From Deltaproteobacteria bacterium (GTDB lineage: Bacteria; Desulfobacterota; Syntrophia; Syntrophales; UBA8958): a stretch of 64,000 bases of DNA. The stretch lies in NCBI GenBank assembly GCA_026388335.1, contig JAPLJZ010000247.1, forward strand, positions 1,233 to 65,232, read 5' to 3'. A program made the position numbers and the translations under genes. Of the stretch, positions 7,631 to 47,175 are shown piece after piece (position 1 is the stretch's first letter; each line of letters begins with the position of its first letter). Below the pieces are notes generated by a model. It was not told the origin of the DNA. It was given only the letters and a program-made list of their open reading frames with translations, and ran no database searches.

Positions 7631-7677
7631 CATCAAAAGACATGGATACAACTCCCGGGGGGCTGTATCCATGTCTT
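7631..7677 (-). terminator. Rho-independent terminator after FecR-like paralog 1
   Basis: 14-bp perfect stem AAGACATGGATACA (7637-7650) / TGTATCCATGTCTT (7664-7677) with a GC-rich interior. On the minus strand it is followed by TTTTGATG. Confidence 0.7.
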
Positions 7678-10868: not shown

Positions 10869-10874
10869 GCTAAT

Positions 10875-12275
10875 ATGGCCAATGTTCTCCTCTTCAATCC
10901 CCCGGCGCCCGGCGGCGGCGGTTTCACCCGGGAGGGCCGATGTACCCAGGAGGCGGGGGTATGGGCCACCCAGTGGCCGCCCCTGTCCCTGACGACGACG
11001 GCGGCCCTGCTTATAGCGAATGGTCATATCGTAAAGGTCTTTGATTTTCCCGCCCTCGGGATGACGGCAACAGCCATCTCCACGCTCATCCGGAAAGAAC
11101 ATCCCGATTTAGCCATCTGGGGCACGGCGACGCCGACCCTCGGTTCGGATCTTCAAATCGCCCGCTTAATCAAGGAAATATCTCCGTCGACAATCACGGC
11201 GGTTATGGGAACCCACGTTACCGCCCGACCCGAAGACGCCCTCTCGGAAAGGGCCGTGGATGCAGTTATCCGGGGTGAACCGGAAGGCATCATCGGGAAT
11301 CTCTGCCGGGTTGGTCATAGCAACTGGAAGAGCGTCAACGGCATTTCATATCGCCGCAAGCAGCTTATACAACATAATCCCGATGCCGATTTTCTCGCTC
11401 CCCCAGACATTCCCGCCCCGGCGTGGCATCTCATCGATCACGGCTCCTATCGTTTGCCCCTAAAGGGACGTCCTTTTCTCATGGTCGCCCCGGTCCGGGG
11501 ATGCCCGTACCGCTGCACCTTCTGCACCGCCCCTCTATACTACGGCGCGAAATTGCGGCGGCGGCCCATCGAAAACGTCCTCCGGGAAATTGAAATAAAC
11601 ACAAAGTCATATAGCATCAGTGACATATTCATCTGGGCCGACACGTTCACCGCCGACCGGGACTATGTCAGGGAATTCTGTCGGGCCGTCATCGCACGCA
11701 GCCTGTCCATCTCCTGGACCTGCAACAGTCGTGTGGACACCATCGACGAGGAAACCCTCATGTTGATGAAAAAGGCCGGCTTGTGGATGATTTCCTATGG
11801 TCTGGAGTCGGGAAACGACGGGATTCTCGCAAGGTCGGGGAAAAAGATGACCGTTGCACAATCGAGAAAGGCTGTGCTATGGGCAAAACAGACGGGGATT
11901 CGCGTGGCGGGCCACTTCATCTTCGGTCTCCCGGGGGAAAAGAAAAGCACTATGGAGGAAACCCTGGCCCTCGCCCTTGAGCTTCCCCTGGATATCGCCC
12001 AGTTTTATGCGGCGGCGCCCTTTCCGGGAACCGGGCTCTACGCCGAGGCCAAGCGCGAGGGCTGGCTGAGGAAGGACTCATTTTCTTCCCAGGCTAGCGC
12101 CGTCATGGATCTGCCGGGTTTGTCGGCGGATGAGGTCGACGATTTCCGCCGTTTCGCCTTCCGGAAGTTCTACGGACGGCCCCAGGCGGCGCTTAATCTT
12201 CTTTCCATGGCGGAATGGGAGGCATTGAAAAGCGTCCCCGCGGCGATGAAAAGATTTCTTGGCTGGACACGGTAA
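10875..12275 (+). CDS. B12-binding-domain radical SAM enzyme
   Basis: CxxxCxxC cluster motif GCPYRCTFCTAP. An N-terminal ~150 aa Rossmann-like B12-binding region precedes it. Confidence 0.8.
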   Translation: MANVLLFNPPAPGGGGFTREGRCTQEAGVWATQWPPLSLTTTAALLIANGHIVKVFDFPALGMTATAISTLIRKEHPDLAIWGTATPTLGSDLQIARLIKEISPSTITAVMGTHVTARPEDALSERAVDAVIRGEPEGIIGNLCRVGHSNWKSVNGISYRRKQLIQHNPDADFLAPPDIPAPAWHLIDHGSYRLPLKGRPFLMVAPVRGCPYRCTFCTAPLYYGAKLRRRPIENVLREIEINTKSYSISDIFIWADTFTADRDYVREFCRAVIARSLSISWTCNSRVDTIDEETLMLMKKAGLWMISYGLESGNDGILARSGKKMTVAQSRKAVLWAKQTGIRVAGHFIFGLPGEKKSTMEETLALALELPLDIAQFYAAAPFPGTGLYAEAKREGWLRKDSFSSQASAVMDLPGLSADEVDDFRRFAFRKFYGRPQAALNLLSMAEWEALKSVPAAMKRFLGWTR

Positions 12276-12283
12276 ATTTCGGC

Positions 12284-12398
12284 GGGAGAGATTTTATACA
12301 AGGTCGGGGAAATCCCCCTGAATCCCCCTTTACAAAGGGAGACTTGGGGAAACTTTATACACCCTCTTTGCTAAAGAGGGGCTGGGGGAGATTTTACA
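12284..12398. repeat. cluster of family-A GC-hairpin mini-repeats filling an intergenic gap
   Basis: CCCCCTTTACAAAGGGA..GGGGAAACTTTATAC (12321-12360) and CCCTCTTTGCTAAAGAGGGGCTGGGGGAGATTTTACA (12362-12398), plus a partial GAGAGATTTTATACA. The same pattern recurs at 22596 and 26701. Confidence 0.8.
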
Positions 12399-12399
12399 T

Positions 12400-14262
12400 T
12401 TGGAAAACAATTATGTTTTAGGCGTCTGGGACGGCCACGATGCAGGAGCGGCCCTCCTCAAGGGAGAGGAAATCGTTTTCGCCATCAACGAAGAGCGCCT
12501 GAGCCGCCGGAAGCTGGAAGTCGGTTTCCCCCACCGATCCATCCGGGCCTGTCTCGACTTCGCCGGACTGAATCCCCCCGACATCAAGTATATTGCCGCT
12601 TCGACAACGGACCCTGCCAAGACACTAACGCGGATTTTCCCAAACCTGAAAGAGGAGTATTACCTCATCCGCCGCCGGAAGCAACCTCCACGTTCCTTTG
12701 ACGCTTTCAAAAAAACCTTTAAATACCGGTTCACGGAACTGGCTCCGAATGTGATTTCACGCCGACTCAGCCTGTCCTGGATGCATAGCCGACTACGGGA
12801 GATGGGCTTCGCCGGATACCGGCTCGAATGGGTTGACCACCACAAAGCCCATGCGGCGGCAGCCTTTTGCTGCGGCTTACCGGAATGTCTGGTGATAACC
12901 CTCGATGGCGTCGGAGACGGCTGCTGCGGCTCGCTATGGTCTTTCCGGAACAAAAAGCTCTCCCTCATCAAGGCCCTGCCCGCCTCCCGCTCCCTGGGAA
13001 TCTTCTTCGAACACGTTACTAATCTCATGAACATGCGGGAACTGGAAGACGAGGGAAAGGTCATGGCCCTGGCCAACTATGCCTATCCCATCGCGGATGA
13101 CGATAATCCCCTGATGTCCGTCATCCAGACGAAAGATCTGGACATTGTCACTCCTTATTCCTCCACGGCCATGTTTCGGGAAATGAAAAAGATCATCTGG
13201 CGCTATCCTTCGGAGCAATTTGCCGCCATGGCCCAGCGGGTCCTCGAAAAATGCGTTCTCGATCTTGTCGCAGCGGCCCTGGCGAAAACCAGTCATAAGA
13301 GAATCGCGGCGGCAGGAGGCGTTTTTTCCAACATCAAGATGAATATGAAGCTCGCCGCGCAACGGGAGGTGGAGAACATCTACGTCTTCCCCCACATGGG
13401 CGATGGCGGCCTCGCCATCGGCGCCGCCATGCTCATGAATCACGACCGCTTCGGCATTTCCGGATATTCGCTACCGAGTCTTGCCCTTGGCCCGTCCTTC
13501 ACGGCGGAAGAGGTTTGGGCCGCCCTTCAAAGCCACCATATAACTGATTCGGCAGCCGGAGAGGGCAGGCCTACAGGAAAAACGGCACTACTGGATTCCT
13601 GCCTTCGCCGGAATGACGATAGGGAGACTGAAATGGAATTTTTCAAAGGTCTCAAGGTAGCACCGGAAACGCACCGAAACGGCGATATCCTGTTTCGGCG
13701 GATCGAAAGCGCTCCGGAGACGGCGGCCCGCCTCATCCTCGCTGGAGAAATCATCCTTTGGTTCCAGGGACGGATGGAAATCGGCCCGCGGTCCCTGGGC
13801 AATCGCAGCATCCTCGCCCGGCCCGATGACAGTGCAATCAAGGACCGTCTCAATCTCCTGCTGAAGAAGAGGGTCTGGTATCAGCCCTTCTGCCCCAGCA
13901 TCCTCGTCGAAGACGCCCCGGCGCTCCTCCATACTGATGGGCAGAACCTCCGCAACAACCCCTTCATGACCATGGCCTTCCGGGTCAGGGCAGATGAGAT
14001 GAAGATGATGGCGGGAGTCATAAATATCGACGGGACCTGCCGTCCCCAGTTTGTCGGCGACGAGCATCCACTATACAGGGATCTCCTTGAACAGATCAAA
14101 AAAATCCTGGGCTATGGAGTGTTGCTCAACACGAGCTTTAACATCCACGGTGAACCGGTGGTCTGTACTCCTCATGAAGCCATCGACATGCTACAGCGGA
14201 CCGGCATCCGCTATCTCGTCATCGAGGACATCCTGGTCGAAAACATGAAGGCAAACCAATGA
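12400..14262 (+). CDS. carbamoyltransferase (NodU/CmcH family)
   Basis: N-terminus YVLGVWDGHDAGAALLKGEEIVFAINEERLSRRK and C-terminal WFQGRMEIGPRSLGNRSILARP are family signatures. Apparent TTG start. Confidence 0.85.
   Translation: MENNYVLGVWDGHDAGAALLKGEEIVFAINEERLSRRKLEVGFPHRSIRACLDFAGLNPPDIKYIAASTTDPAKTLTRIFPNLKEEYYLIRRRKQPPRSFDAFKKTFKYRFTELAPNVISRRLSLSWMHSRLREMGFAGYRLEWVDHHKAHAAAAFCCGLPECLVITLDGVGDGCCGSLWSFRNKKLSLIKALPASRSLGIFFEHVTNLMNMRELEDEGKVMALANYAYPIADDDNPLMSVIQTKDLDIVTPYSSTAMFREMKKIIWRYPSEQFAAMAQRVLEKCVLDLVAAALAKTSHKRIAAAGGVFSNIKMNMKLAAQREVENIYVFPHMGDGGLAIGAAMLMNHDRFGISGYSLPSLALGPSFTAEEVWAALQSHHITDSAAGEGRPTGKTALLDSCLRRNDDRETEMEFFKGLKVAPETHRNGDILFRRIESAPETAARLILAGEIILWFQGRMEIGPRSLGNRSILARPDDSAIKDRLNLLLKKRVWYQPFCPSILVEDAPALLHTDGQNLRNNPFMTMAFRVRADEMKMMAGVINIDGTCRPQFVGDEHPLYRDLLEQIKKILGYGVLLNTSFNIHGEPVVCTPHEAIDMLQRTGIRYLVIEDILVENMKANQ
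13591..13623. repeat. family-C hairpin repeat core (GGATTCC-TGCCTTCGCC-GGAATGACG) inside the carbamoyltransferase CDS
   Basis: The reverse strand reads VIPAKAGIQ (end of antisense ORF 13588..14067). The sense frame reads LLDSCLRRNDD. A related copy lies at 41775-41803. Confidence 0.7.
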
Positions 14263-16132: not shown

Positions 16133-17140
16133 TTACTGCTTGGGCTCGCACGGCGGGCTTGGGCATATGGTTGTCGTTGACATCGATGATGTGGTGGACG
16201 TGGTTGATGTCGTACTGGTTGATGTCGTACTGGCTGCGGTCGTTGGCGCCGTTGTGGGCGCGGGGACTGTAGTTGTGGTTGCGGGAACAGTGGTCGTGGG
16301 CACTGTAACGCCTGCCTTTTGCGCGTCACCTATGGCCTTACCAAGGTCAGTCCGGACCGTCGCGGTAATAGTGCCCAACGTAACCAATGCCTGACTGGCC
16401 TGGCTCGCAACGACCGCGTCAGGGTTGCTCTTCATTATCGCGGCCACCTGCTGGGCCACATCAAGGGCGGCAATCTTGGCCTGTGCCTGCACCACCGGTT
16501 TCAGCACCGTCGGCGGCGCTTCCTGGGCTTGGACGGTCTGCTGGTAAGCCCTCTGCATTGATTGGTAAACGCTGCTCTTTTGCGCCGCGCTGATACCGGG
16601 GTTATCGAAGAAGCCCCGGATGACACTGCCGATTACGGCGGCGTCGCCGCTGTACATATTCAGGTAGGTTCTGACATTGTCGTACCCGAAGTCTCCATCG
16701 GACCCTCGCAGACCCGCGACAGCGGTTGGGCTTTGGAGATAGCTCTTCGTGTTCGAAGCGCCCGTTTTGTACCAGAGCTTTCCGACCATGCAGGTAATTC
16801 GTCTAGCCGATTGGGAGGTCTTGAATATCCAGGTGCCGCTCTGCTCCGTGCGTTCCTGAAGCTGAATGTTAGAATAGGAATTAACCTTCATAACCGCCCC
16901 ATCGTTAAAGGTGATATTCACCTCACCGCTTTGTGTGGCTACCAAATCACCATCGTTCAAGGGCATACCCGCCTTGGTCACTTTGGCAATGGCTGCCCCC
17001 GATTGGATAATCGCGTCCCCCTTGAAGCCGGTGATCTTGCCGATGGCCGCCGCTACCGGGGAAGCGTGAAGAAGGATCAAGCCGAACATTACAAACACTA
17101 CGACCAACAATGTTTTCTTATACAGCAGTTGATTCTTCAT
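16133..17140 (-). CDS. secreted FecR-domain-like protein with Ser/Thr-rich tail ending ICPSPPCEPKQ (paralog 2)
   Basis: About 80 percent identical by eye to 7706..8707. The last 34 residues are identical. The track ORF extends to 17209; MKNQ at 17140 aligns with paralog 1. Confidence 0.7.
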   Translation of the reverse strand: MKNQLLYKKTLLVVVFVMFGLILLHASPVAAAIGKITGFKGDAIIQSGAAIAKVTKAGMPLNDGDLVATQSGEVNITFNDGAVMKVNSYSNIQLQERTEQSGTWIFKTSQSARRITCMVGKLWYKTGASNTKSYLQSPTAVAGLRGSDGDFGYDNVRTYLNMYSGDAAVIGSVIRGFFDNPGISAAQKSSVYQSMQRAYQQTVQAQEAPPTVLKPVVQAQAKIAALDVAQQVAAIMKSNPDAVVASQASQALVTLGTITATVRTDLGKAIGDAQKAGVTVPTTTVPATTTTVPAPTTAPTTAASTTSTSTTSTTSTTSSMSTTTICPSPPCEPKQ

Positions 17141-17319
17141 GGAACAATCCTCTCTTTTCGATTCCGGACGAGCACTTTTCGATCTTACCGATCTTCTTTG
17201 TTTCTTCACAATGAACCCTTTACAAGGCTCGTCTTAATAACACATAAAAAAAAATAAATATAGTTTTTCTACTCAGTGCATGTGCATCTCTACCATTCAG
17301 ATCTTGCTCTCATTTAATG

Positions 17320-18144
17320 TCAGTTCTTCTTCCTCCGATAAAAGAAAACAACGAGGACACAGATCAGCACCACCAGTCCCACGACGAGGAAGGCCTTGAA
17401 CAGAACCGGCCTTTCCTCCACACGGACCTTTCCTTCTACCTGCCTGGCATACTGGTTATTGTTCTCTTCATAGCGCACGATCATCTGATAGGAAACATCC
17501 CCCTTTAAGACCCCCGTCACCGCCACAGGTATTGCCAGTGCTTTTTCTTCTCCGGCGTTGAGGCGGAAGTCCATTTCACCTGCCTCCATCTTCAGGTCGT
17601 CGGGGAGGGCAAAGAAAACGACGGGTTCAATGGCTGTCCCATGGCCATTCTTCAGGGACAGATTAATTTTTATACGCGACCCCAGAGGGCTTTTCAGATT
17701 GATAACCGGCGTGTCCACTCTCACCGTCAAGGCCGGTTTCCCCTTAGCCTCCCCGGCGCGGACGGCAAATGTCGTGAAATGGTAGGTAATGTGGGACGTG
17801 CCGTATTTTTCGTTGAAATTGATCCGGGTGATCAGGATATACTGTCCCGGTTTCAGGATGGTTCCATCGAAAGCGCAGGTATAGCGGATTGTTCCACCGG
17901 GCCTGTTATCCCCCAGGACATCGGAATGGCGCGCGTCGCCGCCCAGAAAGGTGGTTACCGTGACGTTATGGGCCGTATCGTCCCCGAGATTGCTGATTTC
18001 GTCATCAATAAGGATCTTACTCGTAGCCTGGAAGGTAACCTTCGTCGTTACTTTAGTCGTGATGGCGCCGCCATGGACAATGGGCGTTGAAAGCAAGAAT
18101 GTGCAACCCAGCAAGACTATACAGCATAGAATGGCATTCTTCAC
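17320..18144 (-). CDS. hypothetical cell-surface protein, signal peptide (possible lipobox LLGC), two beta-rich domains, C-terminal TM anchor
   Basis: N-terminal MKNAILCCIVLLGC. C-terminal LFKAFLVVGLVVLICVLVVFFYRRKKN. No catalytic motif. Confidence 0.5.
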   Translation of the reverse strand: MKNAILCCIVLLGCTFLLSTPIVHGGAITTKVTTKVTFQATSKILIDDEISNLGDDTAHNVTVTTFLGGDARHSDVLGDNRPGGTIRYTCAFDGTILKPGQYILITRINFNEKYGTSHITYHFTTFAVRAGEAKGKPALTVRVDTPVINLKSPLGSRIKINLSLKNGHGTAIEPVVFFALPDDLKMEAGEMDFRLNAGEEKALAIPVAVTGVLKGDVSYQMIVRYEENNNQYARQVEGKVRVEERPVLFKAFLVVGLVVLICVLVVFFYRRKKN

Positions 18145-20447
18145 TCTTTTACCTCACCTGTTTTTCCCTCAATTTTCTCTCCGATGGCTTCTTTGATCTT
18201 TGTCTCGTCGGGATAGAAGTTTTTTACAAATCGAGTGATCTCCTCTTTGGCGGCCTCGACGTCTTTGACTACCTTGTCGTTGACAGTGGAAATGGTTTTG
18301 CCGCTGTTGACGGCTTCACCTCTGACGGCATTGTCGTCGCTCGCGGTCTTGCCGCTGGTGACCGCCAGGGCCTTATGATAGTGCCAGAGAGCCTTGGTCC
18401 AGGCGGTTTCGGATTTTGGATCTTCCGGGGACAGGGAGCGGGAGCGCATGACCCAGTAATTTCCCATGTCCAGATGTAGGTGAGGGTTTTCCGCCCAGTC
18501 GCCCGCCAAGTGGGCTGCCCTTTCCATAGACTTGTCCGCCGCCGGCATCCACTTCTCCGTGTAATCCGGCCGGTACCATAAATGGGTATATTCCCAGGCC
18601 AGGCGGACATGATATTCCGCGTCCAGGGGGTTCAAACGGATGGCTCCCTCCAGAGCTTTGATGACGGCCACTTGGTTTTCGTCCCTGCTCAGGGCCTTTT
18701 CCTTCTCATCGCCGCCCGGCGTCTGCGTCTGCCGTTGTGCCTCCTGGTCCTCTTTCCCGATCAGGACCATGGCCAGTTTATAATGGTAAGATGCGTTCCC
18801 GCCGTCCCAGGTGATCGCCTGCCGAATACGATCTTCCGGCGGCAACTGGTCCAGGTTCAGGGTCGGATTCATCCCCAGTGGGCAATTGGCATCGCCGATA
18901 AAATGCCGCACCGACCAGATACCCGCCCACAGCATTAACAAAACCAGTGATCCAAGTACCACCACGCCGCCTCGCCATAGGGGGAAGGAGTGAAAACCGT
19001 AAGTCATGGTATCATGGTGGCGTCCCTCTTCCAGGTGGAGGGCGCAAAAACCGATGGCCAGCACGGCGGTCAGGATCATAAAATTGGCAGGAATCCGGAG
19101 ATTGAAGTCGGACCAGGCATGGATAGCCGTCGCCACCAATGCCGCCAGGGACGCCACACCCAGGCAAACGGCAAAGGCACTGCGCCGGGCCAGGCATTTC
19201 CGGACTACGGGATAAAGATAATACCCTATCCCCGCAAGCATCAGGATCAAACCGACGACACCCGCCTCCGCCAGGAGCTGAACCCAGTCGTTGTGGCTGA
19301 ATATCATGCTCTGTCGCACATGTTTCGGATCCTGATAACGCGGATAGGCATATTTGAAGTTACCCACGCCGACCCCAGCCATACGATAGTCATCGAACAT
19401 TTTGAGCGAATTATGGGTAACCAGGGCGCGGTCCTGATAAGCCAGATCAAATTTCTTGAATCGTTCAACGGTCTTATCGAGACCAACAGCCAGGGAATAA
19501 CCCGACATCAGGAGGAAGAGGCCCAGGATGATCGCGCCTTTTCGCCGGAGATCTTTTCGAAAGACAAAGAATAAACCCATAAACAGGAGGGCAACCGTAG
19601 TCGCGATGATTCCGCCCCGGGACCTGGACAGGACCAGGCCGACGCCCATCACCGCGCCTGAAAAGATGATGAGAAAACGCCTGGTAAAGAAGCCCTCGCT
19701 GGAAAAAAAGACCAATATTTTTTCTTTCAGGCCATCTTTCCGGGAGGATCGCCTTGCCTTACCCTGCCCGCGAATCGCAAAGGCGCCGGCATAGGCCGCC
19801 GCCAGTATGATCCCCATCGCCATGAGACCGGCAAAATGATTCCGGTTGTCGTAAGTGCCCGTCACATCCCCAATATAATAAAGTTTTTTTGCCCACAGCA
19901 TCCGTTCGCTTCCCGAATAGGTTTCGATAATGCCATAGAGTGATTCAACCGTTGCCACGCAGAGGATGAGGAGCACCATCGTCTTGATGCGTTTCCGGGA
20001 ATTGAGGGTCCGGACAAGGCCGAAAAAAAAGAGTCCGTAGATTACCCAGCGGATGAGCGACATCCGGACGGGATAAACATAAGGGGCAAGGGTAAGCCAC
20101 TGTTCCTTCATCGCCGTGCCGCCGGCAAGGCCCGCCGCCGGTGCGGCGTAACCTTCCACAACCTTCGCCTCCGGAGATATCTTGAATAAGAGGGCTTCCG
20201 GCAGGGGAGTCATCTGTAAAACCAGGAGAACCATAAAGAAGACAAACAGGGGTATCATCCCCGTCTTCGGGAGGCAATAGGCATAGACGCCGTGGCTCGT
20301 TTTGACGATGCCTTCCTTGATCAGGAGCAGGTTGGCGATGATAATCAAAACAAATACAATGGTATACACCCAGGTATGGACAGCCCCGAAGAGCACCGGA
20401 CTGACGGCCAGGACAAACAAATAAATGATGAAAGCGGCTTTTTCCAT
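18141..20447 (-). CDS. O-antigen ligase / Wzy-like polymerase domain protein with C-terminal helical-repeat (TPR-like) periplasmic domain
   Basis: About 12 TM helices with a Wzy_C-like loop (SMIFSHNDWVQLLAEAGVVG). A ~250 aa soluble tail with helical repeats follows. Confidence 0.7.
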   Translation of the reverse strand: MEKAAFIIYLFVLAVSPVLFGAVHTWVYTIVFVLIIIANLLLIKEGIVKTSHGVYAYCLPKTGMIPLFVFFMVLLVLQMTPLPEALLFKISPEAKVVEGYAAPAAGLAGGTAMKEQWLTLAPYVYPVRMSLIRWVIYGLFFFGLVRTLNSRKRIKTMVLLILCVATVESLYGIIETYSGSERMLWAKKLYYIGDVTGTYDNRNHFAGLMAMGIILAAAYAGAFAIRGQGKARRSSRKDGLKEKILVFFSSEGFFTRRFLIIFSGAVMGVGLVLSRSRGGIIATTVALLFMGLFFVFRKDLRRKGAIILGLFLLMSGYSLAVGLDKTVERFKKFDLAYQDRALVTHNSLKMFDDYRMAGVGVGNFKYAYPRYQDPKHVRQSMIFSHNDWVQLLAEAGVVGLILMLAGIGYYLYPVVRKCLARRSAFAVCLGVASLAALVATAIHAWSDFNLRIPANFMILTAVLAIGFCALHLEEGRHHDTMTYGFHSFPLWRGGVVVLGSLVLLMLWAGIWSVRHFIGDANCPLGMNPTLNLDQLPPEDRIRQAITWDGGNASYHYKLAMVLIGKEDQEAQRQTQTPGGDEKEKALSRDENQVAVIKALEGAIRLNPLDAEYHVRLAWEYTHLWYRPDYTEKWMPAADKSMERAAHLAGDWAENPHLHLDMGNYWVMRSRSLSPEDPKSETAWTKALWHYHKALAVTSGKTASDDNAVRGEAVNSGKTISTVNDKVVKDVEAAKEEITRFVKNFYPDETKIKEAIGEKIEGKTGEVKE

Positions 20448-20471
20448 AACTACTCCGTGTTATTCGCTCTT

Positions 20472-23384
20472 TTATCTCCCGATGCGCACCCAATCCACCC
20501 TCAACTGCCGGTTGTTGTAGGCGTCGTCGGGATTATTGACCAAGTGGACTTCAATTCGATGATCGACGCCGGATATCGGTATCGTGTCCCCAGATTTATC
20601 TACTTTGAACCGGTAAATCTGCCAGCGGGGTTCCGTCACATCTACCTCACCGACTATTTGCCCATCCAGGACAACCCGCACCCGGGGCGGATCTTGCATT
20701 TGAATAAGGTTTCGGGCCTTGATATCGATGAAACCAGTCATGCGCTCGTTCCCCACGCCCGGAAAGTCAGGTACACGAAACGAAGCAGCTATGTAATTAT
20801 TCTTGAAGATCTCCCAGTAATGGTGCTCCCAGTTTCTCATAACCGGTTGTCCGGGCGTTTTCTCGGTCATGCTCTCCGCCTCGATCTGAACAAACGGCGC
20901 CGTATCAACGCAAGCCCCGACATTCGTCAAGAGGGTTGTGAATAGCCGCAATGCCCGTTCCTGATTTTCTCCCGCCGCCATAACCGAAACTGGCTGGGGA
21001 AAATGCGCTGCGGTCCGACTGAGCGACGCGTATTGAGGCTTCAGAATCTCTGTCCAGTCCAACGTATCAACGATGATAAGTCCTTTACCTGACTGCGCTG
21101 CCATAATGACGGCAGGCTCGGTAAGCTTCCACCAGCCTGGCGATAAGGTCTCAAGGTTAACGCTTTTCCCATCCCCTACAAAGGACATAGGCACTGATTT
21201 ATTCACCCCCTCCCCTTCAAGGGGAGGTTTAGGGTGGGGATGGGGTTTAGACGAGAGTTGTGGCGAAGCTAAAGGGGCAAGCTCCAGCGCCCATTTGGAC
21301 GGCGGCAGCAGGCTCGCGAAATTATAGGTCACATCGGGAAGCGACGCGGGCCAGTAAAGATATTGATTCAGAAGACCCTGGGTCAGCAGTGAAGCGTTCC
21401 AGAGAGATCCCGGGGTTCGAACCATCGGAGCATCTGGATCTCTCCCGGCAATTTTAACAGGCAAGCGCTCCTTTGACAATGACACAACCTTCAGGCCTCG
21501 CACCGGCGGGTTTATCATAGGCAATGTTTGATCATCGGCGCCCGTCAGCCAGAGGATATTTCCCGCTTTAACCCAATCCTCAAGGCGAGAGTCGGCATGA
21601 GGCTGCCGGGCAAGCTCAGACGCCGTCATCATGAAAATGCCCTGATAATCATCAGTCAATGCGGCGTTTTCGACATGAACACCCCATGCCGACAAATGCT
21701 GCTGCACTACCTCCGGAAGATGCAAGCTTGTCCCTGTTAACAACCTATCAGTGCTATCCTGCCCCGACATGTTCGCTCCGGCTACACTCCCCGTCCTTTC
21801 AGGACTTTCGAGATATCTAATGGCATTAAAGAGGATTTCCGCCGCCACCGGTTCCTTATGCGCTTTCTCAACCAACGCCAATTGACTGAAAAGTGTCGTG
21901 CCGGACACATCAGTCTTTTCGTTAGTCGTACCGGCAATACCAGGCTTTGCGATCGCCCTGCCACCCACACCGGGTTTTTCGATCAATGAGCAATAAATCA
22001 GGCCGCCTGTCCCACCGCTGACGACCAACGGCCGATACCCGCCACCGATTGGCAAATTGAAATCTTTACGGGAGATGTTCAGATCCGCTGCCCATAATCT
22101 GAACATGTCATTCCTACTCATACTGGAATCCTTTGCCCTTACGACCGGATGCCCGGGTGCGGCAACAAACCCCAACGTCGTCCCGTGCCGCTCATTAAGC
22201 GTCAGGCCCGGGGGGAATCCCAGTGGATATCTGTCCTGCTCCAGGATAAGCGTCGCTTCCCGACCGGCGGTGATTCGTTCCGTAAGCTTCCGAATTTCTT
22301 TATCGTCGAGTTTCGTTAAGGCATCCTTCCCGATGATGAGGATGCCTCGCATCTTTTTCCCCTCCGTGGCACTTGCCGCAGGCATGCTTGTCACCTTTCG
22401 ATAGGGTAACCCCAGCTTTTTGAAAAGATTCTCCGTATCTCCCAATGGATCGAAAAGATAAACCGGCTTCAGCCGCCTCCAGGTAACACCCGCCGGCCGG
22501 GGATAAACAGCCACCAATTTTTGAATGTCATCCTTTGATCTTCGGATCTCATCCCTCCCCCCTTCCGCGACAGGGGATCCAATGAGATTATTACTTCCCC
22601 CTTTCCCAAAAGAGGACCAAGGGGGATTTTCCAGGACACAAATCTTAACTTCATAATCCCGAACCGCACGGACCTTTGGCAAAGAAAACCCGATTTCAAC
22701 TTCCTGCCGGCCACCGGGCTCGACAAGAAAAGGCCCTAAAATATTAGCTTCGTAATCGCTGACTTGTTTTGATTTCCCTTTAACAGTCGAATTACCGGCA
22801 CGGACCGCTTTCGCTCCGACGGCAGCATTACCTTTGTCGCCTGCTTGTTCCCCTAACGAATAGTGAATGGATAAGCGCTTCTGCCCCCGGGTATCATTCA
22901 GCAAGATGCCTTTCCAGCGCAACGTAGCGCCGCCGTAGTATCTCTCCACGGCCTGTGGATAGAGGATCAGCTTCAGCGGTTTCAGCGCTTCTTTCAAGGC
23001 GGCGTTTGCCTTCGGACCCGCGGGCGGATTCCAGGGATTAATCATTGCAACATCCATGGCCCGCGTCGCTTCCACGGTATGTTTCCAGATTTCCCCTTGT
23101 GCGACATCTCGAATCGTACGGTGCTGCGCGTAGGCGTCATCACCGGAAATGATGGCTTCCGTGTGGGGCGCCCCACCGTAGAAATAACCGATTTCACCGA
23201 TATCCAGGGGCTTCTTTCGCTCCCAGCGCCATTTGAAATCCGGTTTGTGATACCAGAAGGAAGAAGTCGATATAGGTACTCGACCGGCTTTCTCCCCTAT
23301 CCTTGCGATCCCGCTCTTTCCCCCTCCCCTCAATCCCCTCCCGCAAGGGGAGGGGAAGCTTATTGGAATGCGCCGCCGCATCAC
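20472..23384 (-). CDS. C-terminal ~900 aa of a giant secreted glycosidase (continuation of the GH2 ORF in another frame); ends in a CBM-like beta-sandwich
   Basis: After the repeat-derived first ~30 aa it reads ...WYHKPDFKWRWERKKPLDIGEIGYFYGG, a GH2 nucleophile-like context. The C-terminus FVQIEAES...RVVLDGQIVGEV...QLRVDWVRIGR resembles a carbohydrate-binding module. No signal peptide of its own. Confidence 0.5.
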   Translation of the reverse strand: MMRRRIPISFPSPCGRGLRGGGKSGIARIGEKAGRVPISTSSFWYHKPDFKWRWERKKPLDIGEIGYFYGGAPHTEAIISGDDAYAQHRTIRDVAQGEIWKHTVEATRAMDVAMINPWNPPAGPKANAALKEALKPLKLILYPQAVERYYGGATLRWKGILLNDTRGQKRLSIHYSLGEQAGDKGNAAVGAKAVRAGNSTVKGKSKQVSDYEANILGPFLVEPGGRQEVEIGFSLPKVRAVRDYEVKICVLENPPWSSFGKGGSNNLIGSPVAEGGRDEIRRSKDDIQKLVAVYPRPAGVTWRRLKPVYLFDPLGDTENLFKKLGLPYRKVTSMPAASATEGKKMRGILIIGKDALTKLDDKEIRKLTERITAGREATLILEQDRYPLGFPPGLTLNERHGTTLGFVAAPGHPVVRAKDSSMSRNDMFRLWAADLNISRKDFNLPIGGGYRPLVVSGGTGGLIYCSLIEKPGVGGRAIAKPGIAGTTNEKTDVSGTTLFSQLALVEKAHKEPVAAEILFNAIRYLESPERTGSVAGANMSGQDSTDRLLTGTSLHLPEVVQQHLSAWGVHVENAALTDDYQGIFMMTASELARQPHADSRLEDWVKAGNILWLTGADDQTLPMINPPVRGLKVVSLSKERLPVKIAGRDPDAPMVRTPGSLWNASLLTQGLLNQYLYWPASLPDVTYNFASLLPPSKWALELAPLASPQLSSKPHPHPKPPLEGEGVNKSVPMSFVGDGKSVNLETLSPGWWKLTEPAVIMAAQSGKGLIIVDTLDWTEILKPQYASLSRTAAHFPQPVSVMAAGENQERALRLFTTLLTNVGACVDTAPFVQIEAESMTEKTPGQPVMRNWEHHYWEIFKNNYIAASFRVPDFPGVGNERMTGFIDIKARNLIQMQDPPRVRVVLDGQIVGEVDVTEPRWQIYRFKVDKSGDTIPISGVDHRIEVHLVNNPDDAYNNRQLRVDWVRIGR
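21205..21247. repeat. family-B GC-hairpin repeat inside CDS
   Basis: ACCCCCTCCCCTTCAAGGGGAGGTTTAGGGTGGGGATGGGGTT. Read in frame as KPHPHPKPPLEGEGV. Confidence 0.75.
22553..22633. repeat. family-A hairpin repeat (plus adjacent small hairpin) inside CDS
   Basis: CCCCCTTTCCCAAAAGAGGACCAAGGGGGATTTTCC preceded by CCCCCCTTCCGCGACAGGGG. Read in frame as ENPPWSSFGKGGSNNLIGSPVAEGG. Confidence 0.7.
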
Positions 23385-25101
23385 GGCGCGGCAGACTCGT
23401 CACATCTCCCAGCCACCAGGCATCCTTCGGATACTGATTCCAAAACGGCAGTTCATGAGGATAGTGCAGGCTGATGATATCCGCCACACCCTCCGGGTCG
23501 TCACCGCCGTTGAAGAGAATCGGCCGGGTGGGGTCCCACCTCTTGACCTTCCTCCCCAATTCCGCAAATTTCATCTCTGCGCGGTTGCCGTGACTGTACT
23601 GGATAGACTCGTTTTCAATACTGTAGACGATAACCGAGGGATGATTCCGGAATTTCCGCACCAAGCCCTGCCAGTGAATAGTCGCGTTATCAAAGAAAAT
23701 ATCGCTGTTATAATTATTTTGAACCACATAAGAACCATTAATCGCCGATTCTGCCACAACCAGCATCCCCATTTGATCAGCTACATCGTAATACCAATCG
23801 GGAAAAATATTCGCATGAAAGCGAACTGCATTGACATTCAAATTCTTCAAATGCTGCAGATGCTCCACAAGTTGCTGACGACTGAACCCATTATTGCCAA
23901 TCGAAGCCGTAAACAGATGGATCTTCTTCCCATTCAGCCAGAGTTCATGTCCCTTAACGATAATCTGCCGATAACCAAAGGGGATTACTTTTCTATAACA
24001 AAGTCCACCACCCAAATTAATTCTCAAATTATAAAGAACCGGACTTTTCGGCTCCCAGGGTGTCAACCCCTTCGCGTCCAGAATAACCTGAAATGTCTTA
24101 CTCTGTCCCGCCGCAACGTCGCGAACGTCGGTGACGTCAACGACGGTGATTCCTTTGCTGTCATTCCCGACGACGATTTCCTTGCCATCACCTCCCTCAA
24201 CGATGGCAATGGTCATTATCCCCTGCCACGCCCGCGCCCCCTGGTTGTGAATCTGTCCGGACACCCGAATCTTGCCGTCGGCAACCAGCGCATCCACTGC
24301 CACATCGTCCACGCGCACACCCGGCAATACCTCAAACCGGACATCATCCCAAATACCATACAGACGATGATTGCCGCCTACCGGAGCAATCGTTTTATAC
24401 CAGATGGATTTATCAAAGGGACTCCCTGGTGAAAATTGAAGGATCACACCATTCTTGTTGCTTCCTTGACCGGCTGCATCCGCTGATATCTCCTGCCCCT
24501 GTGCCTTCTCAAGCACTGAAGTCCAGTCCTGAACAAGGATAATCAATTCATTATCATTTTCTCCTTTATCCTTCACTGCTAAAGGAGAAGCAGGACGGAG
24601 TTCAGGAAATTGGGCGCTTCCCCTGTTTTTCAGGAAAGGCGTAAGATCATGTTCAAACGGCTCTAACGTCGGCCCATGCCCACCCACGAACCTGCCATTG
24701 AGATAAACCTGCGACGCGAAGGCAACACCATTGAAATGGATGATGATTCGATCGTCGATGTTTCCGGCAGGTAATGCAAAGGTTTTACGGTAGGCAGCAA
24801 AATGGGTTGGGGATGAACCTTCACGGGAAGGAATCTCTACAGGCGCCCACTTGTCCGGCTTCAGCGCGCTCAAGGAAAATTGATCGATGAATTGCCGCTG
24901 CCAAGGGCCATTCATGGAAATTATTTTGGGGTAAAAAACAGTTCCAACAGTTTCAACGGTTCCAGCAGTTCCAGCAGTTTCAACGGCATAAGCGCTTAAA
25001 ACACCAATATGCAGGCATAAAAAAAGCGTCATGATTAAGCACCATGCCGCCCCTTTTTGTCGATGTTTCATTTTAGATCGACCTGCAATTTTACAATTCA
25101 A
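23194..25101 (-). CDS. glycoside hydrolase family 2-like protein, N-terminal part (signal peptide, sugar-binding, Ig-like, start of TIM barrel)
   Basis: Signal peptide ...CLHIGVLSAYA. NAVRFHANIFPDWYYDVADQMGMLVVAES and VIVYSIENES (acid/base-type NE) are GH2 TIM-barrel signatures. The last ~55 aa are repeat or out-of-frame sequence. Confidence 0.7.
   Translation of the reverse strand: MNCKIAGRSKMKHRQKGAAWCLIMTLFLCLHIGVLSAYAVETAGTAGTVETVGTVFYPKIISMNGPWQRQFIDQFSLSALKPDKWAPVEIPSREGSSPTHFAAYRKTFALPAGNIDDRIIIHFNGVAFASQVYLNGRFVGGHGPTLEPFEHDLTPFLKNRGSAQFPELRPASPLAVKDKGENDNELIILVQDWTSVLEKAQGQEISADAAGQGSNKNGVILQFSPGSPFDKSIWYKTIAPVGGNHRLYGIWDDVRFEVLPGVRVDDVAVDALVADGKIRVSGQIHNQGARAWQGIMTIAIVEGGDGKEIVVGNDSKGITVVDVTDVRDVAAGQSKTFQVILDAKGLTPWEPKSPVLYNLRINLGGGLCYRKVIPFGYRQIIVKGHELWLNGKKIHLFTASIGNNGFSRQQLVEHLQHLKNLNVNAVRFHANIFPDWYYDVADQMGMLVVAESAINGSYVVQNNYNSDIFFDNATIHWQGLVRKFRNHPSVIVYSIENESIQYSHGNRAEMKFAELGRKVKRWDPTRPILFNGGDDPEGVADIISLHYPHELPFWNQYPKDAWWLGDVTSLPRRDAAAHSNKLPLPLREGIEGRGKERDRKDRGESRSSTYIDFFLLVSQTGFQMALGAKEAPGYR
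23316..23359. repeat. family-B GC-hairpin repeat at the frame junction of the two GH2 ORFs
   Basis: CTTTCCCCCTCCCCTCAATCCCCTCCCGCAAGGGGAGGGGAAGC. Read as LPLPLREGIEGRG in one ORF and SFPSPCGRGLRGGG in the other. Confidence 0.75.
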
Positions 25102-25390
25102 CGGAATTGAGCCAGTCTTCCAGATTGACTTTCAAAGCCATGTTCCTCTTTTTCAGCAAAAGGAGAAAGTCCCACATGTTCAAATCCAGCATGCGGCAGG
25201 CTTCTTCCACGGAAAGATCGCCGGTCTGATATTTCTCCAAAAGCCTCACCTGCCGGTCTTCATCAAACCCTTTTTGCAAGATTTCCCGCAGATACGCCGA
25301 TTTATCGAGGTGCATATTTTTGACAAACGAAGTTATCTCCTTCAGAAATTCTTCAGGTATCCTCACTGTTGCCGGTTTCAACATTTCCAA
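25091..25390 (-). CDS. RHH / UPF0175-like antitoxin-type protein
   Basis: TVRIPEEFLKEITSFVKNMHLDKSAYLREILQKG (CopG-like RHH), then LEKYQTGDLSVEEACRMLDLNMWDFLLLLKK (UPF0175-like). Confidence 0.5.
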   Translation of the reverse strand: MEMLKPATVRIPEEFLKEITSFVKNMHLDKSAYLREILQKGFDEDRQVRLLEKYQTGDLSVEEACRMLDLNMWDFLLLLKKRNMALKVNLEDWLNSVEL

Positions 25391-25579
25391 TCTCCTCCAG
25401 TCTCAATAGTGCTTCAGCAATGATATCGGGTGCATAACGTCCCTCAATGCGCATCTTTTCAATGGCTACTTTTGCCAAAGGTCTTTCGATGCGTCCACGC
25501 CGGTACAACTCCGTGGCGATCTTCGGGGATATGATAAAAGGCAGGTTCAGAAATCTGCATGTCTTAATGTTTCGTCCCC
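25353..25579 (-). pseudogene. C-terminal remnant of a DUF3368/PIN-like toxin (no start codon)
   Basis: Open frame reads ...LPFIISPKIATELYRRGRIERPLAKVAIEKMRIEGRYAPDIIAEALLRLEEIGN. It starts directly after the stop of the MazF-like gene and has no ATG/GTG. Confidence 0.3.
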
Positions 25580-25942
25580 CTACAAGTTAAGAACGAGTTT
25601 TATCGCCTGGTCTATATCGGCCATCCGATGGGTGGGCACCTGTCCGGCAAGATTGGGCAGATGTGTCTCGGGGTGATAGAAACGGGAAGGGTCAATTGAG
25701 CGTAACTGGAAACAAAGGAAAACAGTGTCTATCGGGAGCCCCGTTTCTTTAGCAGTGACACGAACATTGGTTGGATAGTCGCGGGGGACATTTCTGGCGT
25801 CTGTGCCTACAACCACGGTTACGACGAGTGGTTGCAGATTGATAGCATCGCTCGAAACGACCAGAACAGGTCTGTATCCGGCTTGCTCCCGGCCTTGAGT
25901 CGGATTCAGATTTGCAAAATAGATCTGACCGCGGTTAATCAT
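25580..25942 (-). CDS. MazF/PemK-family endoribonuclease toxin
   Basis: MINRGQIYFANLNPTQGREQAGYRPVLVVSSD is the canonical PemK/MazF N-terminus. 8-bp overlap with the upstream antitoxin. Confidence 0.85.
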   Translation of the reverse strand: MINRGQIYFANLNPTQGREQAGYRPVLVVSSDAINLQPLVVTVVVGTDARNVPRDYPTNVRVTAKETGLPIDTVFLCFQLRSIDPSRFYHPETHLPNLAGQVPTHRMADIDQAIKLVLNL

Positions 25943-26210
25943 TCTTTAAACCGTCCGCTTCCGCAATGGCAAATTCTTTTGATAGAACGGCACATTCCTT
26001 ACGGATGGCGGGATCAGCCGCCATCCGTGCCATTGACTCTTCAAAGGACCGCTTCTTTCGTTGGGTAACGAAATCCTGCAACGCCACCGTTACGAGACGG
26101 TTTAAATTTTCACGCAACTCAGGAGGAGCAACGGTGAGTACTTCTTCAATGAGTTTGTAAGGCAGCGCCACGCTGCGGCGAACGGTCTTGGGTGATGGTT
26201 CTGATTTCAT
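25935..26210 (-). CDS. RHH-type antitoxin partner of the MazF-like toxin
   Basis: KTVRRSVALPYKLIEEV...LVTVALQDFV (ribbon-helix-helix). ATG at 26210 sits behind GAAAGGA; the track ORF starts at a TTG at 26231. Confidence 0.6.
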   Translation of the reverse strand: MKSEPSPKTVRRSVALPYKLIEEVLTVAPPELRENLNRLVTVALQDFVTQRKKRSFEESMARMAADPAIRKECAVLSKEFAIAEADGLKND

Positions 26211-26231
26211 GTCACACATCCTTTCACACAA

Positions 26232-26700: not shown

Positions 26701-26743
26701 TCCCCCCTTTAGTAAAGGGGGGAAAGGGGGGATTTTATACAAA
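26701..26743. repeat. family-A hairpin repeat abutting the stop codon of the response regulator
   Basis: TCCCCCCTTTAGTAAAGGGGGGAAAGGGGGGATTTTATACAAA. Confidence 0.8.
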
Positions 26744-32944: not shown

Positions 32945-33945
32945 TACCTCACCCCATCCACAATGTTCATCAGGACTTTTGAACCCTCGAAGTCAAACCG
33001 ATAACGCATTTCCCGGAGGCCCAGTTCCTTCATTTTCTCCCGGAACCGGGCCTGATGCTTTTCCACATAAAACAAAAAGAACCCACCGCCGCCCGCCCCG
33101 GAAATCTTCCCGCCCAGGGCGCCGTTCTCCTTGGCAAGGTCGTAAATCTCATCAAACCGCTTGTTGGACATCTTCGTAGATATTCTTTTCTTATACTGCC
33201 AATGCTGATCGAACAGCAGGCCCACATCGGTGATATTGCCGCTCTCCACGGCCTCCAGGATCTTGTAACCCAATTCCTTGATGTAGTGCATGCTTTCCAC
33301 CACGCTCTTCTTTTCCTCTTTGGCCCCCCGGCTCTGCTCGGAAAGAATGGTATCCGCACTCCGGGAGGACCCCGTGTAAAACATGAGGATGTTGCAACTC
33401 AACTCATCCAGGGCGTTGTCTGTCACATTAGCAGCACGAACCTTCACCGTCCCGTCTTTGCCGATCTCCAGCACCGTCAGCCCCCCGAATGCGGCCATGT
33501 ATTGATCCTGTTTGCCGATCGGCTTGCCCAAGCGGTTGATCTCAAGATCGCAGGCCATCTCGGCCAGATCCTGGAGGGATAAATACTGCCGCTTCATGGA
33601 CTGCAAAGCCCGTAGGAGCCCCACAGCATAGCAACTCGATGAGCCCAAGCCGGTGCCGGCTGGTACGTCGGCCATGGAAATGATCTCTACGGCCTTTTCC
33701 ACCCCCATCATGCGCAGGGCCTCTTTAGCGATGTCATGCTGGAGATCTTCCCGGTGCTCTACCGTTTCAGATATCGAGTATTTGACCCGCACCATATCGT
33801 CAACGATGGGACGATTAAGATTGATGTACATGTATTTATTGATGGCTGCGGCAAATATAAAACCGCCGTATTTTGAATAATAAGACGTAAGGTCTGTCCC
33901 GCCACCGCCCAGAGTAAAGCGGAATGGTGTTCTTGTGATAATCAT
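32944..33945 (-). CDS. hddA: GHMP kinase, probable D-glycero-alpha-D-manno-heptose 7-phosphate kinase
   Basis: MIITRTPFRFTLGGGGTDL...YGGFIFAAAINKYMYI and the GHMP motif PAGTGLGSSS. Confidence 0.75.
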   Translation of the reverse strand: MIITRTPFRFTLGGGGTDLTSYYSKYGGFIFAAAINKYMYINLNRPIVDDMVRVKYSISETVEHREDLQHDIAKEALRMMGVEKAVEIISMADVPAGTGLGSSSCYAVGLLRALQSMKRQYLSLQDLAEMACDLEINRLGKPIGKQDQYMAAFGGLTVLEIGKDGTVKVRAANVTDNALDELSCNILMFYTGSSRSADTILSEQSRGAKEEKKSVVESMHYIKELGYKILEAVESGNITDVGLLFDQHWQYKKRISTKMSNKRFDEIYDLAKENGALGGKISGAGGGGFFLFYVEKHQARFREKMKELGLREMRYRFDFEGSKVLMNIVDGVR

Positions 33946-34530
33946 TTAAGCGCCTTCCTGCATCAATTTACATTCTGTCTCAGAAATAGAATACATGCGC
34001 CTGCATGTACAGGACACTACACTAACTGAACCATCACTACTCGGCAACTTCAACCCGCAGACACACATCCATCCTTTTGACCGTGCAGGATTGCCGTGAA
34101 CCAGCGCATGGGCCGTCACCATTCTTGTCACCACCGCGCCTGCGCCGACCGAGGCATATCGCCCGATTTTCACGCCGGGGGCGATGATCGCCCCCGCACC
34201 AATACTGACGCCATCTTCAATAATAATGGGTTCATAGGTCTTGGGATAACCGCTCCGCGGGTACCGCTCATTCGAGAACACCGCATGCGGCCCCAAAAAA
34301 ACATCATTGCCGATCATGGTTCCTTCCCAAAGGGAGATACCGTTTTTCACCACCACCCGGTCACCGATCTTCACCCCGTTTTCGATGAAGCAGTGCTCGC
34401 CGACATTGCACGACGCACCGATGGAAACCTGTTCTTGGACATGGCTCCAGCCCCAAATCCTGGTACCCTCGCCAATACTGCGTGTCTCAACAATAGCCAA
34501 GGGGTGGACAAAAAAGGGGTTCTCTGTCAT
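33946..34530 (-). CDS. left-handed beta-helix (hexapeptide) acyl/acetyltransferase with Cys-rich C-terminal tail
   Basis: Hexapeptide repeats (IGDRVVVKNGISLWEGTMIGNDVFLG..). C-terminal CVCG...SCTCRR. The first 38 codons of the track ORF are repeat-derived; Met at 34530 is the likely start. Confidence 0.8.
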   Translation of the reverse strand: MTENPFFVHPLAIVETRSIGEGTRIWGWSHVQEQVSIGASCNVGEHCFIENGVKIGDRVVVKNGISLWEGTMIGNDVFLGPHAVFSNERYPRSGYPKTYEPIIIEDGVSIGAGAIIAPGVKIGRYASVGAGAVVTRMVTAHALVHGNPARSKGWMCVCGLKLPSSDGSVSVVSCTCRRMYSISETECKLMQEGA

Positions 34531-34536
34531 CAAGAA

Positions 34537-34574
34537 ACACCCCCACCCTCCCCCTGCAATGGGGAGGGAAATGG
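34537..34574. repeat. family-B GC-hairpin repeat in the short gap between two genes
   Basis: ACACCCCCACCCTCCCCCTGCAATGGGGAGGGAAATGG. Confidence 0.75.
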
Positions 34575-34615
34575 AAGGACATTCTCCCTTGCTGGGAGTG
34601 AATTTAAAAGAGTTG

Positions 34616-35590
34616 TCATTGTTTGAACTGCAACACTGATTCAAATAGTTCCATGACTTTCAGCATGAAGCCGCCATCCGTCAATGGCCGCTGCCTTTCG
34701 CGGATACACATGATAAAATGATCCACCACATTGGCCAAGGGCTCGCCCGCACCATGCGGCAAGGCAGTTTCTGTCTTCTCTTCAAACTTGAAAAGGGTCA
34801 ACTTTTTCTCCGGATCAAGGTCATCGAAGATGAGCTGCTGCCGGCCATCGGCAATCAACAATTCACGACGGCGCTCCGGTAGTGTCCAACTCAAACCAAC
34901 ATGGATCGGAAAGCGCTGCGATTCCAATCTGATCATGGCCGTATCGCAACACGTCCCGGATATGCCATACAAGCGATGCACGGCAACCGGCGCAAAAACC
35001 TCATTAGGGAACAGGTATGTCAGGATGGCCGCATCATGGAAGAACAGATCCCGGATCACATCCGTTCCCTGATCCAACATGGTCGTCCTGAGTCTGGCGA
35101 TATTATGCATCCGCAGGTCATTACCGTAACGCAGGGATTGGATAAACCCAATCTCCGGAAAAAGTTCCTTATCCAATAAATGCCTGATCTCACGGACAGG
35201 ATCGCTATAGACAAATGTTGAATCCATCATAAATACAAAATGATCCCGATCTGCCATCTCCACAAGTATTTCCAGCTCTGTCAAAGTCTGCGTCGGCGGC
35301 TTGGTCATAAGGACGTGTTTGCCTGCCGCAAATGCCGCCTTCGCCAACTCAAAATGGGTCGGCGGCGGCGTGGCGATTACTACACCCACCACATCTGGCA
35401 TCTCCAGAACGCGCGAGGGATCTTCATACAAGACCACATTTGGGTAGCTCTTCATCTCTTCCCGCCGCGCCGCCCAGGGATCACAACCAGAAATCTTTGA
35501 TACTTGAGGATTTGCCGATAAATTGCGCAACAGCTTCGATCCCCACCAGCCAAGGCCTAAAACCGCAATATGCAGCATATCTCCCCTCAT
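34616..35590 (-). CDS. Gfo/Idh/MocA-family oxidoreductase
   Basis: IAVLGLGWWGSKLLRNL Rossmann N-terminus and LMTKPP (EKP-like). Confidence 0.7.
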   Translation of the reverse strand: MRGDMLHIAVLGLGWWGSKLLRNLSANPQVSKISGCDPWAARREEMKSYPNVVLYEDPSRVLEMPDVVGVVIATPPPTHFELAKAAFAAGKHVLMTKPPTQTLTELEILVEMADRDHFVFMMDSTFVYSDPVREIRHLLDKELFPEIGFIQSLRYGNDLRMHNIARLRTTMLDQGTDVIRDLFFHDAAILTYLFPNEVFAPVAVHRLYGISGTCCDTAMIRLESQRFPIHVGLSWTLPERRRELLIADGRQQLIFDDLDPEKKLTLFKFEEKTETALPHGAGEPLANVVDHFIMCIRERQRPLTDGGFMLKVMELFESVLQFKQ

Positions 35591-37050: not shown

Positions 37051-37086
37051 GATAAGACGAAGCGAACGGCAGGGTCTTGACGGCGA

Positions 37087-38969: not shown

Positions 38970-38996
38970 TGTTAAAAACCTCCTTTACTAATTATG

Positions 38997-43572: not shown

Positions 43573-43590
43573 GGCGTGATCGGTGTATCG

Positions 43591-44703: not shown

Positions 44704-44725
44704 TTTCTGGACCGGTATAGCGTTG

Positions 44726-47173: not shown

Positions 47174-47175
47174 AT

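Follow-up and report, generated by a model that had tools for sequence, protein, structure and literature searches.

The window analyzed here, 64,000 nucleotides (nt) of an 89-kb contig from a metagenome-assembled genome (MAG) listed at NCBI as 'Deltaproteobacteria bacterium' (locus tags NTV58_), carries on its minus strand two overlapping open reading frames (ORFs), here called ORF A and ORF B, that, judged from their sequences, are the two parts of one giant, putatively secreted GH2-type glycosidase gene. What parts them is a second copy of the tetranucleotide CTTC, and independent assemblies of the same strain that hold a single copy encode one uninterrupted protein of 1,531 amino acids (aa). 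We consider it very probable that the lesion is an ordinary 4-nt indel, whether real or artefactual, that was neither caused by the GC-rich hairpin in the ORF overlap nor programmed. In the scheme that we propose, a single gene for a secreted GH2-type glycosidase of ~1,531 aa would sit within a large polysaccharide-biosynthesis locus, and a 4-nt tandem duplication (CTTC to CTTCCTTC, 23256-23263) would shift its reading frame by +1. Translation from the native start would then run through 21 wrong codons and end at a stop at 23194-23196, and the truncation would remove the presumed nucleophile Glu625 together with ~930 residues beyond it. The hairpin, 53 nt upstream of the indel, would be part of a 117-nt insert that is older, in frame, and located in a disordered loop, and it would have no role in the event. 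Coordinates of the features are collected in Table 1.

A preliminary description of this stretch had placed the two ORFs in different frames, with a start offset of 1717 nt (a remainder of 1 on division by 3) and an overlap of 191 nt, and these figures and the ORF coordinates were reproduced on the minus strand. It had also proposed that the ORFs are halves of one secreted GH2-type enzyme, and both single-polypeptide homologues and the intact 1,531-aa allele speak for this proposal. Just five full-length relatives of the protein (P0001-P0005) were found among 5.8 billion proteins, and with the intact protein as query, a scan of genome contigs gave no relative. When the conceptual fusion of ORF A and ORF B was used as the query, the homologues matched over 95-100% of its length in one polypeptide (73% for P0004): P0001 (1,647 aa) at 72% identity, P0002 (1,321 aa) at 45%, P0003 (1,393 aa; NT178_16830 at NCBI) at 40%, P0004, which has its C-terminus cut off, at 43%, and P0005, which has the CBM60 family among its precomputed domains, at 26%. 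All five span the junction as single proteins, and around it they follow the pattern SLHYPHELPFWNQYPKDAWWL-[variable loop]-YID(S/F)FWY.KP....W.(R/K)KKPLD(I/L)GEIG(Y/F)F. A competing reading, in which a short GH2 gene is followed by a gene for an independent protein, can draw on the NCBI entry for the first part of the gene, which lists ORF A as a protein of its own (MCX5829796.1, 625 aa, hypothetical protein NTV58_17640). Against this reading, the homologues are single polypeptides, the presumed nucleophile Glu and the remainder of the barrel fall in ORF B, and the first ~44 residues of ORF B (not the ~30 repeat-derived residues described earlier) are an out-of-frame translation of the repeat, beginning at a GTG/ATG that has no Shine-Dalgarno sequence upstream. 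Two separate genes are thus extremely improbable, and the full-length homologues and the intact allele led us to rule them out.

The position of the frame change can be read directly from the conserved sequence of the junction, which is TYIDFFWYHKPDF in the homologues. The window has TYIDFF in the frame of ORF A and (F)WYHKPDF, or (F)WYHKPDFKWRWERKKPLDIGEIG, in the frame of ORF B, and thus the frame changes at 23256-23263. On the coding strand the context is gactt[CTTC][CTTC]tgg, that is gac ttc ttc c ttc tgg at 23253-23268. The split had been placed exactly at the GC-hairpin repeat (23316-23359), but the duplicated 8-mer lies 53 nt past the low-coordinate end of that repeat, downstream of the hairpin. 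DNA alignment to the P0001 locus of a related species (contig L001) gave near-identical flanks on both sides of the shift, with 88-91% nucleotide identity to the window in the better-aligned blocks, and over the shift itself L001 has gactt----tttctgg where the window has gacttcttccttctgg. The reading gac ttt ttc tgg in L001 makes the single copy the ancestral state, and the event is therefore ordinary and derived whether it arose in the organism or in the assembly.

Assemblies of the same strain carry the intact allele. The sequence of the neighboring Wzy_C protein (768 aa) is identical on six Logan contigs from six sequencing runs, and four of these contigs cross the CTTC site: L002 (SRR20698638), L003 (SRR20698651), L004 (SRR25046532), and L005 (ERR15302165). 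Each aligns to 7.0-8.4 kb of window positions 17003-25397; there are 0 mismatches, and the single gap is the 4 nt of CTTC, which can be placed at 23256-23259 or at 23260-23263. L002 and L003 contain the complete single 1,531-aa ORF (P0122), while L004 and L005 are 5′-truncated. With further contigs fetched via three other window genes, independent assemblies from at least 10 runs cover 30.9 kb of the window (10718-13630, 17003-25397, 33254-39163, and 43469-57194; series SRR206986xx, SRR25046532, and ERR153021xx/22xx), and CTTC is the sole difference over that length. The identical assemblies represent one clonal strain that has been sampled repeatedly, probably at a single site or from an enrichment; a literature search by run accession returned no papers. 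The preliminary description had allowed that a simple indel, once removed, would restore one gene, and this is essentially borne out by the independent assemblies, which lack one CTTC and carry a single ORF. As a separate observation, the six contigs over the GH2/Wzy region all end at 17003, inside an ORF at 16133-17209 (minus strand), and the repeat search showed that the gene at this break has a diverged paralogue at 7636-8156 with 74-82% identity.

The predicted architecture of the enzyme extends over both ORFs. ORF A had been described as having a signal peptide and GH2 signatures, and each description held up: the N-terminus looks like a Sec signal peptide when read by eye, the GH2 N-terminal sugar-binding β-sandwich (PF02837) scores 43.2 bits in ORF A and 41.4 in intact P0122 (cut-off 28), and the TIM barrel (PF02836) scores 70.8 bits in ORF A, with a match confined to profile positions 7-174 of 302. 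In the intact homologues, too, the Pfam model misses the barrel's second half. The immunoglobulin-like β-sandwich (PF00703) is weak at 19.9 and 17.8 bits, under its cut-off of 23, and all-β segments occupy its position in an AlphaFold2 model. In ORF B, which carries WERKKPLDIGEIGYFYGG, the only Pfam match is the subthreshold CBM60-like C-terminus. An alignment of 14 homologues shows two invariant Glu residues, Glu488 in the acid/base region of ORF A and Glu625, the probable nucleophile, within the GEIG motif of ORF B. Of the two features claimed earlier for ORF B, the nucleophile context contains an invariant Glu, and the CBM-like end stays at a match of 25 bits that falls below the cut-off. 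A profile search of PDB sequences gave an alignment that ends ahead of the insert, so sequence alone did not suffice to map the nucleophile, and Glu625 is presumed to be that residue from its invariance and from the model. Because Glu625 lies downstream of the frameshift, ORF A by itself lacks the presumed nucleophile; its stop codon in fact overlaps the Glu625 codon.

Structure prediction is consistent with these assignments. The AlphaFold2 model spans residues 29-820 of the intact protein (792 residues; predicted template modelling score 0.77, mean per-residue confidence score, pLDDT, 73.6), and in it LDIGEI, with Glu625, forms a β-strand. The lineage-specific inserts of this region, including the one of 39 residues, fall inside low-confidence segments, and the low-confidence segment at the junction (model residues 511-584) includes conserved flanks on both sides. 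Foldseek matched the model to LacZ, BuGH2A, and other GH2 enzymes with E values from 9e-32 to 1e-29 over ~870 alignment columns, which can be long enough to cover the entire 792-residue model, junction included, and the predicted overall fold is that of GH2. Like E. coli LacZ, GusA, and Bacteroides BuGH2A (5t98), the protein is predicted to combine an N-terminal sugar-binding β-sandwich with a (β/α)8 barrel and to have, besides an NE acid/base motif, another invariant Glu that sits in a β-strand (Foldseek E ~1e-31 to LacZ). In contrast to the solved GH2 structures, to which it has only ~15% identity, it carries ~900 extra C-terminal residues with a weak CBM60-like end, and its gene adjoins a Wzy_C gene in a polysaccharide-synthesis locus. 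By sequence comparison the enzyme appears to be a member of a rare, uncharacterized GH2 clade, and its place upstream of Wzy_C may interest those who study exopolysaccharide turnover.

The most conspicuous feature near the junction is the hairpin. A C-run/G-run hairpin is indeed present at 23335-23355 within the 191-nt ORF overlap, as reported earlier, and this location is what recommends the explanation that a repeat insertion of length 3n±1, or slippage in the C5/G4 runs, made the split. Several results oppose it. The insert that contains the hairpin is 117 nt long, which is 3 × 39, and is read in the ORF A frame, with the six conserved codons for TYIDFF correct beyond it; the insert, including all of its C/G runs, is base-for-base the same in the intact 1,531-aa allele; and the C/G tracts show no variation between assemblies. 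A homopolymer sequencing error in these runs is likewise excluded, as the runs are identical in the intact allele and the indel is a CTTC duplication in a non-homopolymer context. We assign the hairpin a negligible probability of being the cause and rejected it on the L001 DNA alignment and the intact same-strain allele. The case carries a caution: a conspicuous GC hairpin in an ORF overlap looked causal, and comparison within the strain locates the lesion in unremarkable sequence at a distance of 53 nt.

Properties of the hairpin and its surroundings can be described independently of that question. The insert has edges CGAGT...CGAGT, a candidate target-site duplication with no counterpart in L001, and 5 nt of this kind may be chance. 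A search of the window for the hairpin halves (21-mers), exact and with ≤3 mismatches, returned only the copy itself, and the repeat search found no long repeat touching the locus; the hairpin 'family' is one of shared architecture, not of shared sequence. Four C-run/G-run hairpins occur in the window (at 21209, 23335, 26701, and 34546), and 20 shuffles gave 0-1. A fifth hit of the hairpin search, at 34177, was set aside as unrelated. As RNA, 23240-23400 folded no more stably than shuffled sequences did (z = -1.07). On the coding strand of the insert there is also a canonical G-quadruplex-type motif, GGGAGGGGATTGAGGGGAGGGGG (window 23320-23342, minus strand), whose formation in DNA or mRNA could be in competition with that of the hairpin.

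Phase variation classically targets surface-polysaccharide genes, and known contingency loci of the lic type have a long tract of a 1-7-nt unit, variable in length from cell to cell or sample to sample, while +1 recoding of the prfB type involves a shift-prone codon, a stop or rare codon after it, and a Shine-Dalgarno-like stimulator a few nt upstream. On this background one could argue that CTTC is a phase-variable tract, since a 2-unit tetranucleotide repeat could in principle revert via slippage, or that a +1 ribosomal shift at UUC-UUC-CUU-CUG restores the full-length enzyme, since base-pairing rules would let a tRNA-Leu that has read CUU pair anew with UUC following a +1 step. The resemblance to the lic genes of Haemophilus influenzae and to prfB lies in a 4-nt change that toggles a surface-polysaccharide-related gene and in a +1 shift that would restore the product. 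The differences are more numerous. The window site has 1 or 2 units instead of a long tract and shows no heterogeneity across assemblies, and the four other same-strain assemblies and five homologues are uninterrupted across the junction, so the frameshift is kept in no homologue. The shift site reads UUC UUC CUU CUG GUA, with no stop for 21 codons, no rare codon following in frame 0, and no GGAGG or similar Shine-Dalgarno stimulator in the 20 nt upstream. The hairpin and G-quadruplex motif are upstream of the site and not downstream, and an Rfam scan gave one chance-level match, which is outside the junction. For comparison, the junction peptide is TYIDFFWYHKPDFK in the intact protein, TYIDFFLLVSQTGFQMALGAK in truncated ORF A, and would be TYIDFFFWYHK if the duplicated allele were recoded by +1. 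Slippage-dependent or programmed expression, which had been offered earlier as an explanation, therefore finds no support, and we judge either form highly unlikely.

What is left is an ordinary indel, and the more difficult question is where it resides. We give an even chance to the CTTC duplication being a recent, non-programmed null allele that was truly in the sampled DNA; on the narrower matter of whether the 4 nt were in that DNA or arose only in assembly, we lean slightly toward the DNA. De Bruijn-graph assemblers normally output only k-mers that are found in reads, and the MAG shows no further discrepancy with the other assemblies in 31 kb, both of which count for a real variant. Several observations weigh on the other side. 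The frameshifted products (ORF A of 625 aa; ORF B of 969 or 970 aa) are in no assembly beyond the NCBI MAG, exact look-ups of ORF B in its 970-aa and 969-aa forms returned nothing, and a JGI metagenome scan gave 0 matches to either allele; with no second sighting of these products, there is no independent observation of the duplicated allele. In addition, the first base of contig L006 (SRR20698639) is at 23258, within the 8-mer that is duplicated, and this position is the exact start of a 38-nt exact match common to the L001-like relative. The site may for this reason be an awkward graph node, at which an assembler or curation step could err, and the start is not proof of heterogeneity. We had considered the break as a sign of mixed alleles and dropped the idea, as a mixture predicts a start at 23259 and the observed one is the edge of the 38-nt shared match.

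The alternative that these observations favor is that the gene is intact in the organism and that the extra CTTC came from consensus building of the MAG, for example where contigs were joined or the sequence was locally repaired within the low-complexity CTTCTTC context. In its favor, 4/4 independent assemblies across the site are without the 4 nt while nothing else differs in 30.9 kb, the frameshifted products occur in no other assembly, and L006 breaks at a node that is common to a close relative and awkward for graph assemblers. Against it, the MAG is otherwise error-free over 31 kb, and it is rare for a k-mer-based assembler to create a tandem duplication of 4 nt that no reads support. We regard an artefact of this kind as a serious possibility at somewhat under an even chance. 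For annotation, MCX5829796.1 and the next ORF are best taken together as a single GH2 gene, frameshifted or mis-assembled, with an intact product of 1,531 aa. The anomaly reduces to a private 4-nt indel and has little import beyond annotation hygiene.

Table 1. Features of the GH2-type glycosidase gene and its neighbor (window coordinates)
Feature	Position	Strand	Remarks
GH2-type glycosidase gene	20472..25071	minus	Intact product 1,531 aa; ATG at 25071, stop at 20472-20474; window copy disrupted by 4 extra nt
ORF A	23194-25101	minus	635 aa from TTG start; 625 aa from ATG at 25071
ORF B	20472-23384	minus	970 aa (969-aa form also looked up)
Signal-peptide-like N-terminus	24985..25071	minus	MKHRQKGAAWCLIMTLFLCLHIGVLSAYA, then VE; read by eye; kept in P0001 and P0002
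Glu488 codon (SIENE), predicted acid/base	23608..23610	minus	Aligned to NE motif (SIGNE) of GH2 structure 5t98; invariant in 14 homologues
In-frame insert	23278..23394	minus	117 nt = 39 codons, LPRRDAAAHSNKLPLPLREGIEGRGKERDRKDRGESRSS; loop between acid/base and nucleophile regions
Core C-run/G-run hairpin	23335..23355		Plus strand CCCCTCCC-GCAA-GGGGAGGGG; 'family-B repeat' of the preliminary description; identical in intact allele; bystander
CTTC-CTTC	23256..23263	minus	Intact allele holds one CTTC; gac ttc ttc / cttc / tgg
Out-of-frame tail of ORF A	23194..23259	minus	LLVSQTGFQMALGAKEAPGYR, then stop; not native protein
Glu625 codon (KKPLDIGEIG), presumed nucleophile	23193..23195	minus	Intact-protein numbering; invariant in 14 homologues; downstream of frameshift
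Second C-run/G-run hairpin	21209..21227		In-frame translation KPHPHPKPPLEGEGV; common to L001, absent from P0002 and P0003
CBM60-like C-terminal module	20475..20702	minus	PF16841, weak: 25 bits, below 28.2 cut-off
Wzy_C gene (O-antigen ligase/polymerase-like)	18141..20447	minus	MCX5829794.1; downstream of GH2 gene

The loop that houses the 117-nt insert differs among the orthologues. Different in-frame inserts occupy this position between catalytic strands in 4/5 of them, and the loop of P0002 (contig L008) has no insert and reads WWLRETGMYIDSF. L001 has an unrelated 153-nt in-frame insert, with a hairpin, CCCCCCTTTAGAAAAGGGGGG, that resembles the intergenic window copy at 26701; P0003 (contig L010) has a likewise unrelated 189-nt in-frame insert of short tandem repeats; and P0004 has a shorter in-frame insert in the same loop. 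Rickettsia palindromic elements (RPEs) are short palindromic repeats that insert in frame in protein genes, in a surface or disordered loop, and are tolerated as extra peptide (PMC10969869). [quoted passage not shown] In contrast to RPEs, they are much shorter, share only an architecture (C-run / loop / G-run plus a third run), lack a conserved encoded peptide, and reside in an uncultured 'Deltaproteobacteria' MAG instead of Rickettsia. That in-frame repeat inserts are tolerated in the catalytic-barrel region adds a little to the RPE/MITE theme. Two of the four hairpins in the window, and both of those in L001, are inside the GH2 gene. It could be proposed from this pattern that GC-hairpin, G-quadruplex-type, or short-tandem repeats specific to each genome have landed in the loop recurrently, perhaps by targeting, and are kept in frame, and that replication trouble there might promote microduplications like that of CTTC; we consider this proposal unlikely. 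If true, it would mean RPE-like behavior outside Rickettsia and microduplications by which a population that is otherwise clonal loses the enzyme's activity.

The two remaining hairpins, at 26701-26723 and 34546-34568, are intergenic and each has a third adjacent run; the first is between a toxin-antitoxin pair and the next gene, and the second separates a GFO_IDH_MocA oxidoreductase gene from a hexapeptide-transferase gene. P0001 (L001 2821-7764) is 116 aa longer than the window protein through extra in-frame repeat-like inserts, such as IAPSPLLQRGGRGDFLVSL (hairpin at L001 3779), PPQSPFRKGGSVNIKGG..., and VSDLVGKTGDTIPNPGAIGSCPQISPQISG.

The surrounding locus is one of polysaccharide biosynthesis, with GT2 and GT4 glycosyltransferases, a Bac_transf priming transferase, a DegT aminotransferase, a polysaccharide deacetylase, and Wzy_C. 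Each of the three loci examined has a Wzy_C gene just downstream of its GH2 gene, namely the window, L001 (directly), and L010, where three small genes, including those for a RelE-family toxin and an HTH protein, intervene. From this neighborhood it is reasonable to suppose that the GH2 enzyme may trim or turn over exopolysaccharide. Small toxin-antitoxin-like ORFs directly upstream of the GH2 gene (25091-26231) include one at 25580-25942 that looks PemK/MazF-like by eye and has small partner ORFs, and at the corresponding position (187-2575) L001 carries three MazE-PIN pairs. Together with the RelE/HTH genes of L010, these look like variable toxin-antitoxin cassettes around a conserved GH2/Wzy_C pair. 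The L010 contig, from the MAG that encodes P0003, has two small genes of the 23S_rRNA_IVP / bAvd family (4086-4439 and 8871-9233) in a sugar-nucleotide cluster upstream of the GH2 gene; genes of this family are not present in the window region examined. Farther away in the window, a 219-nt direct repeat occurs in three copies with 85-91% identity (39009-39227, 41450-41668, and 43303-43521), and an 89-nt repeat forms a pair that is 96% identical (40333-40421 and 41650-41738). Both are probably paralogous gene segments in the glycosyltransferase region.

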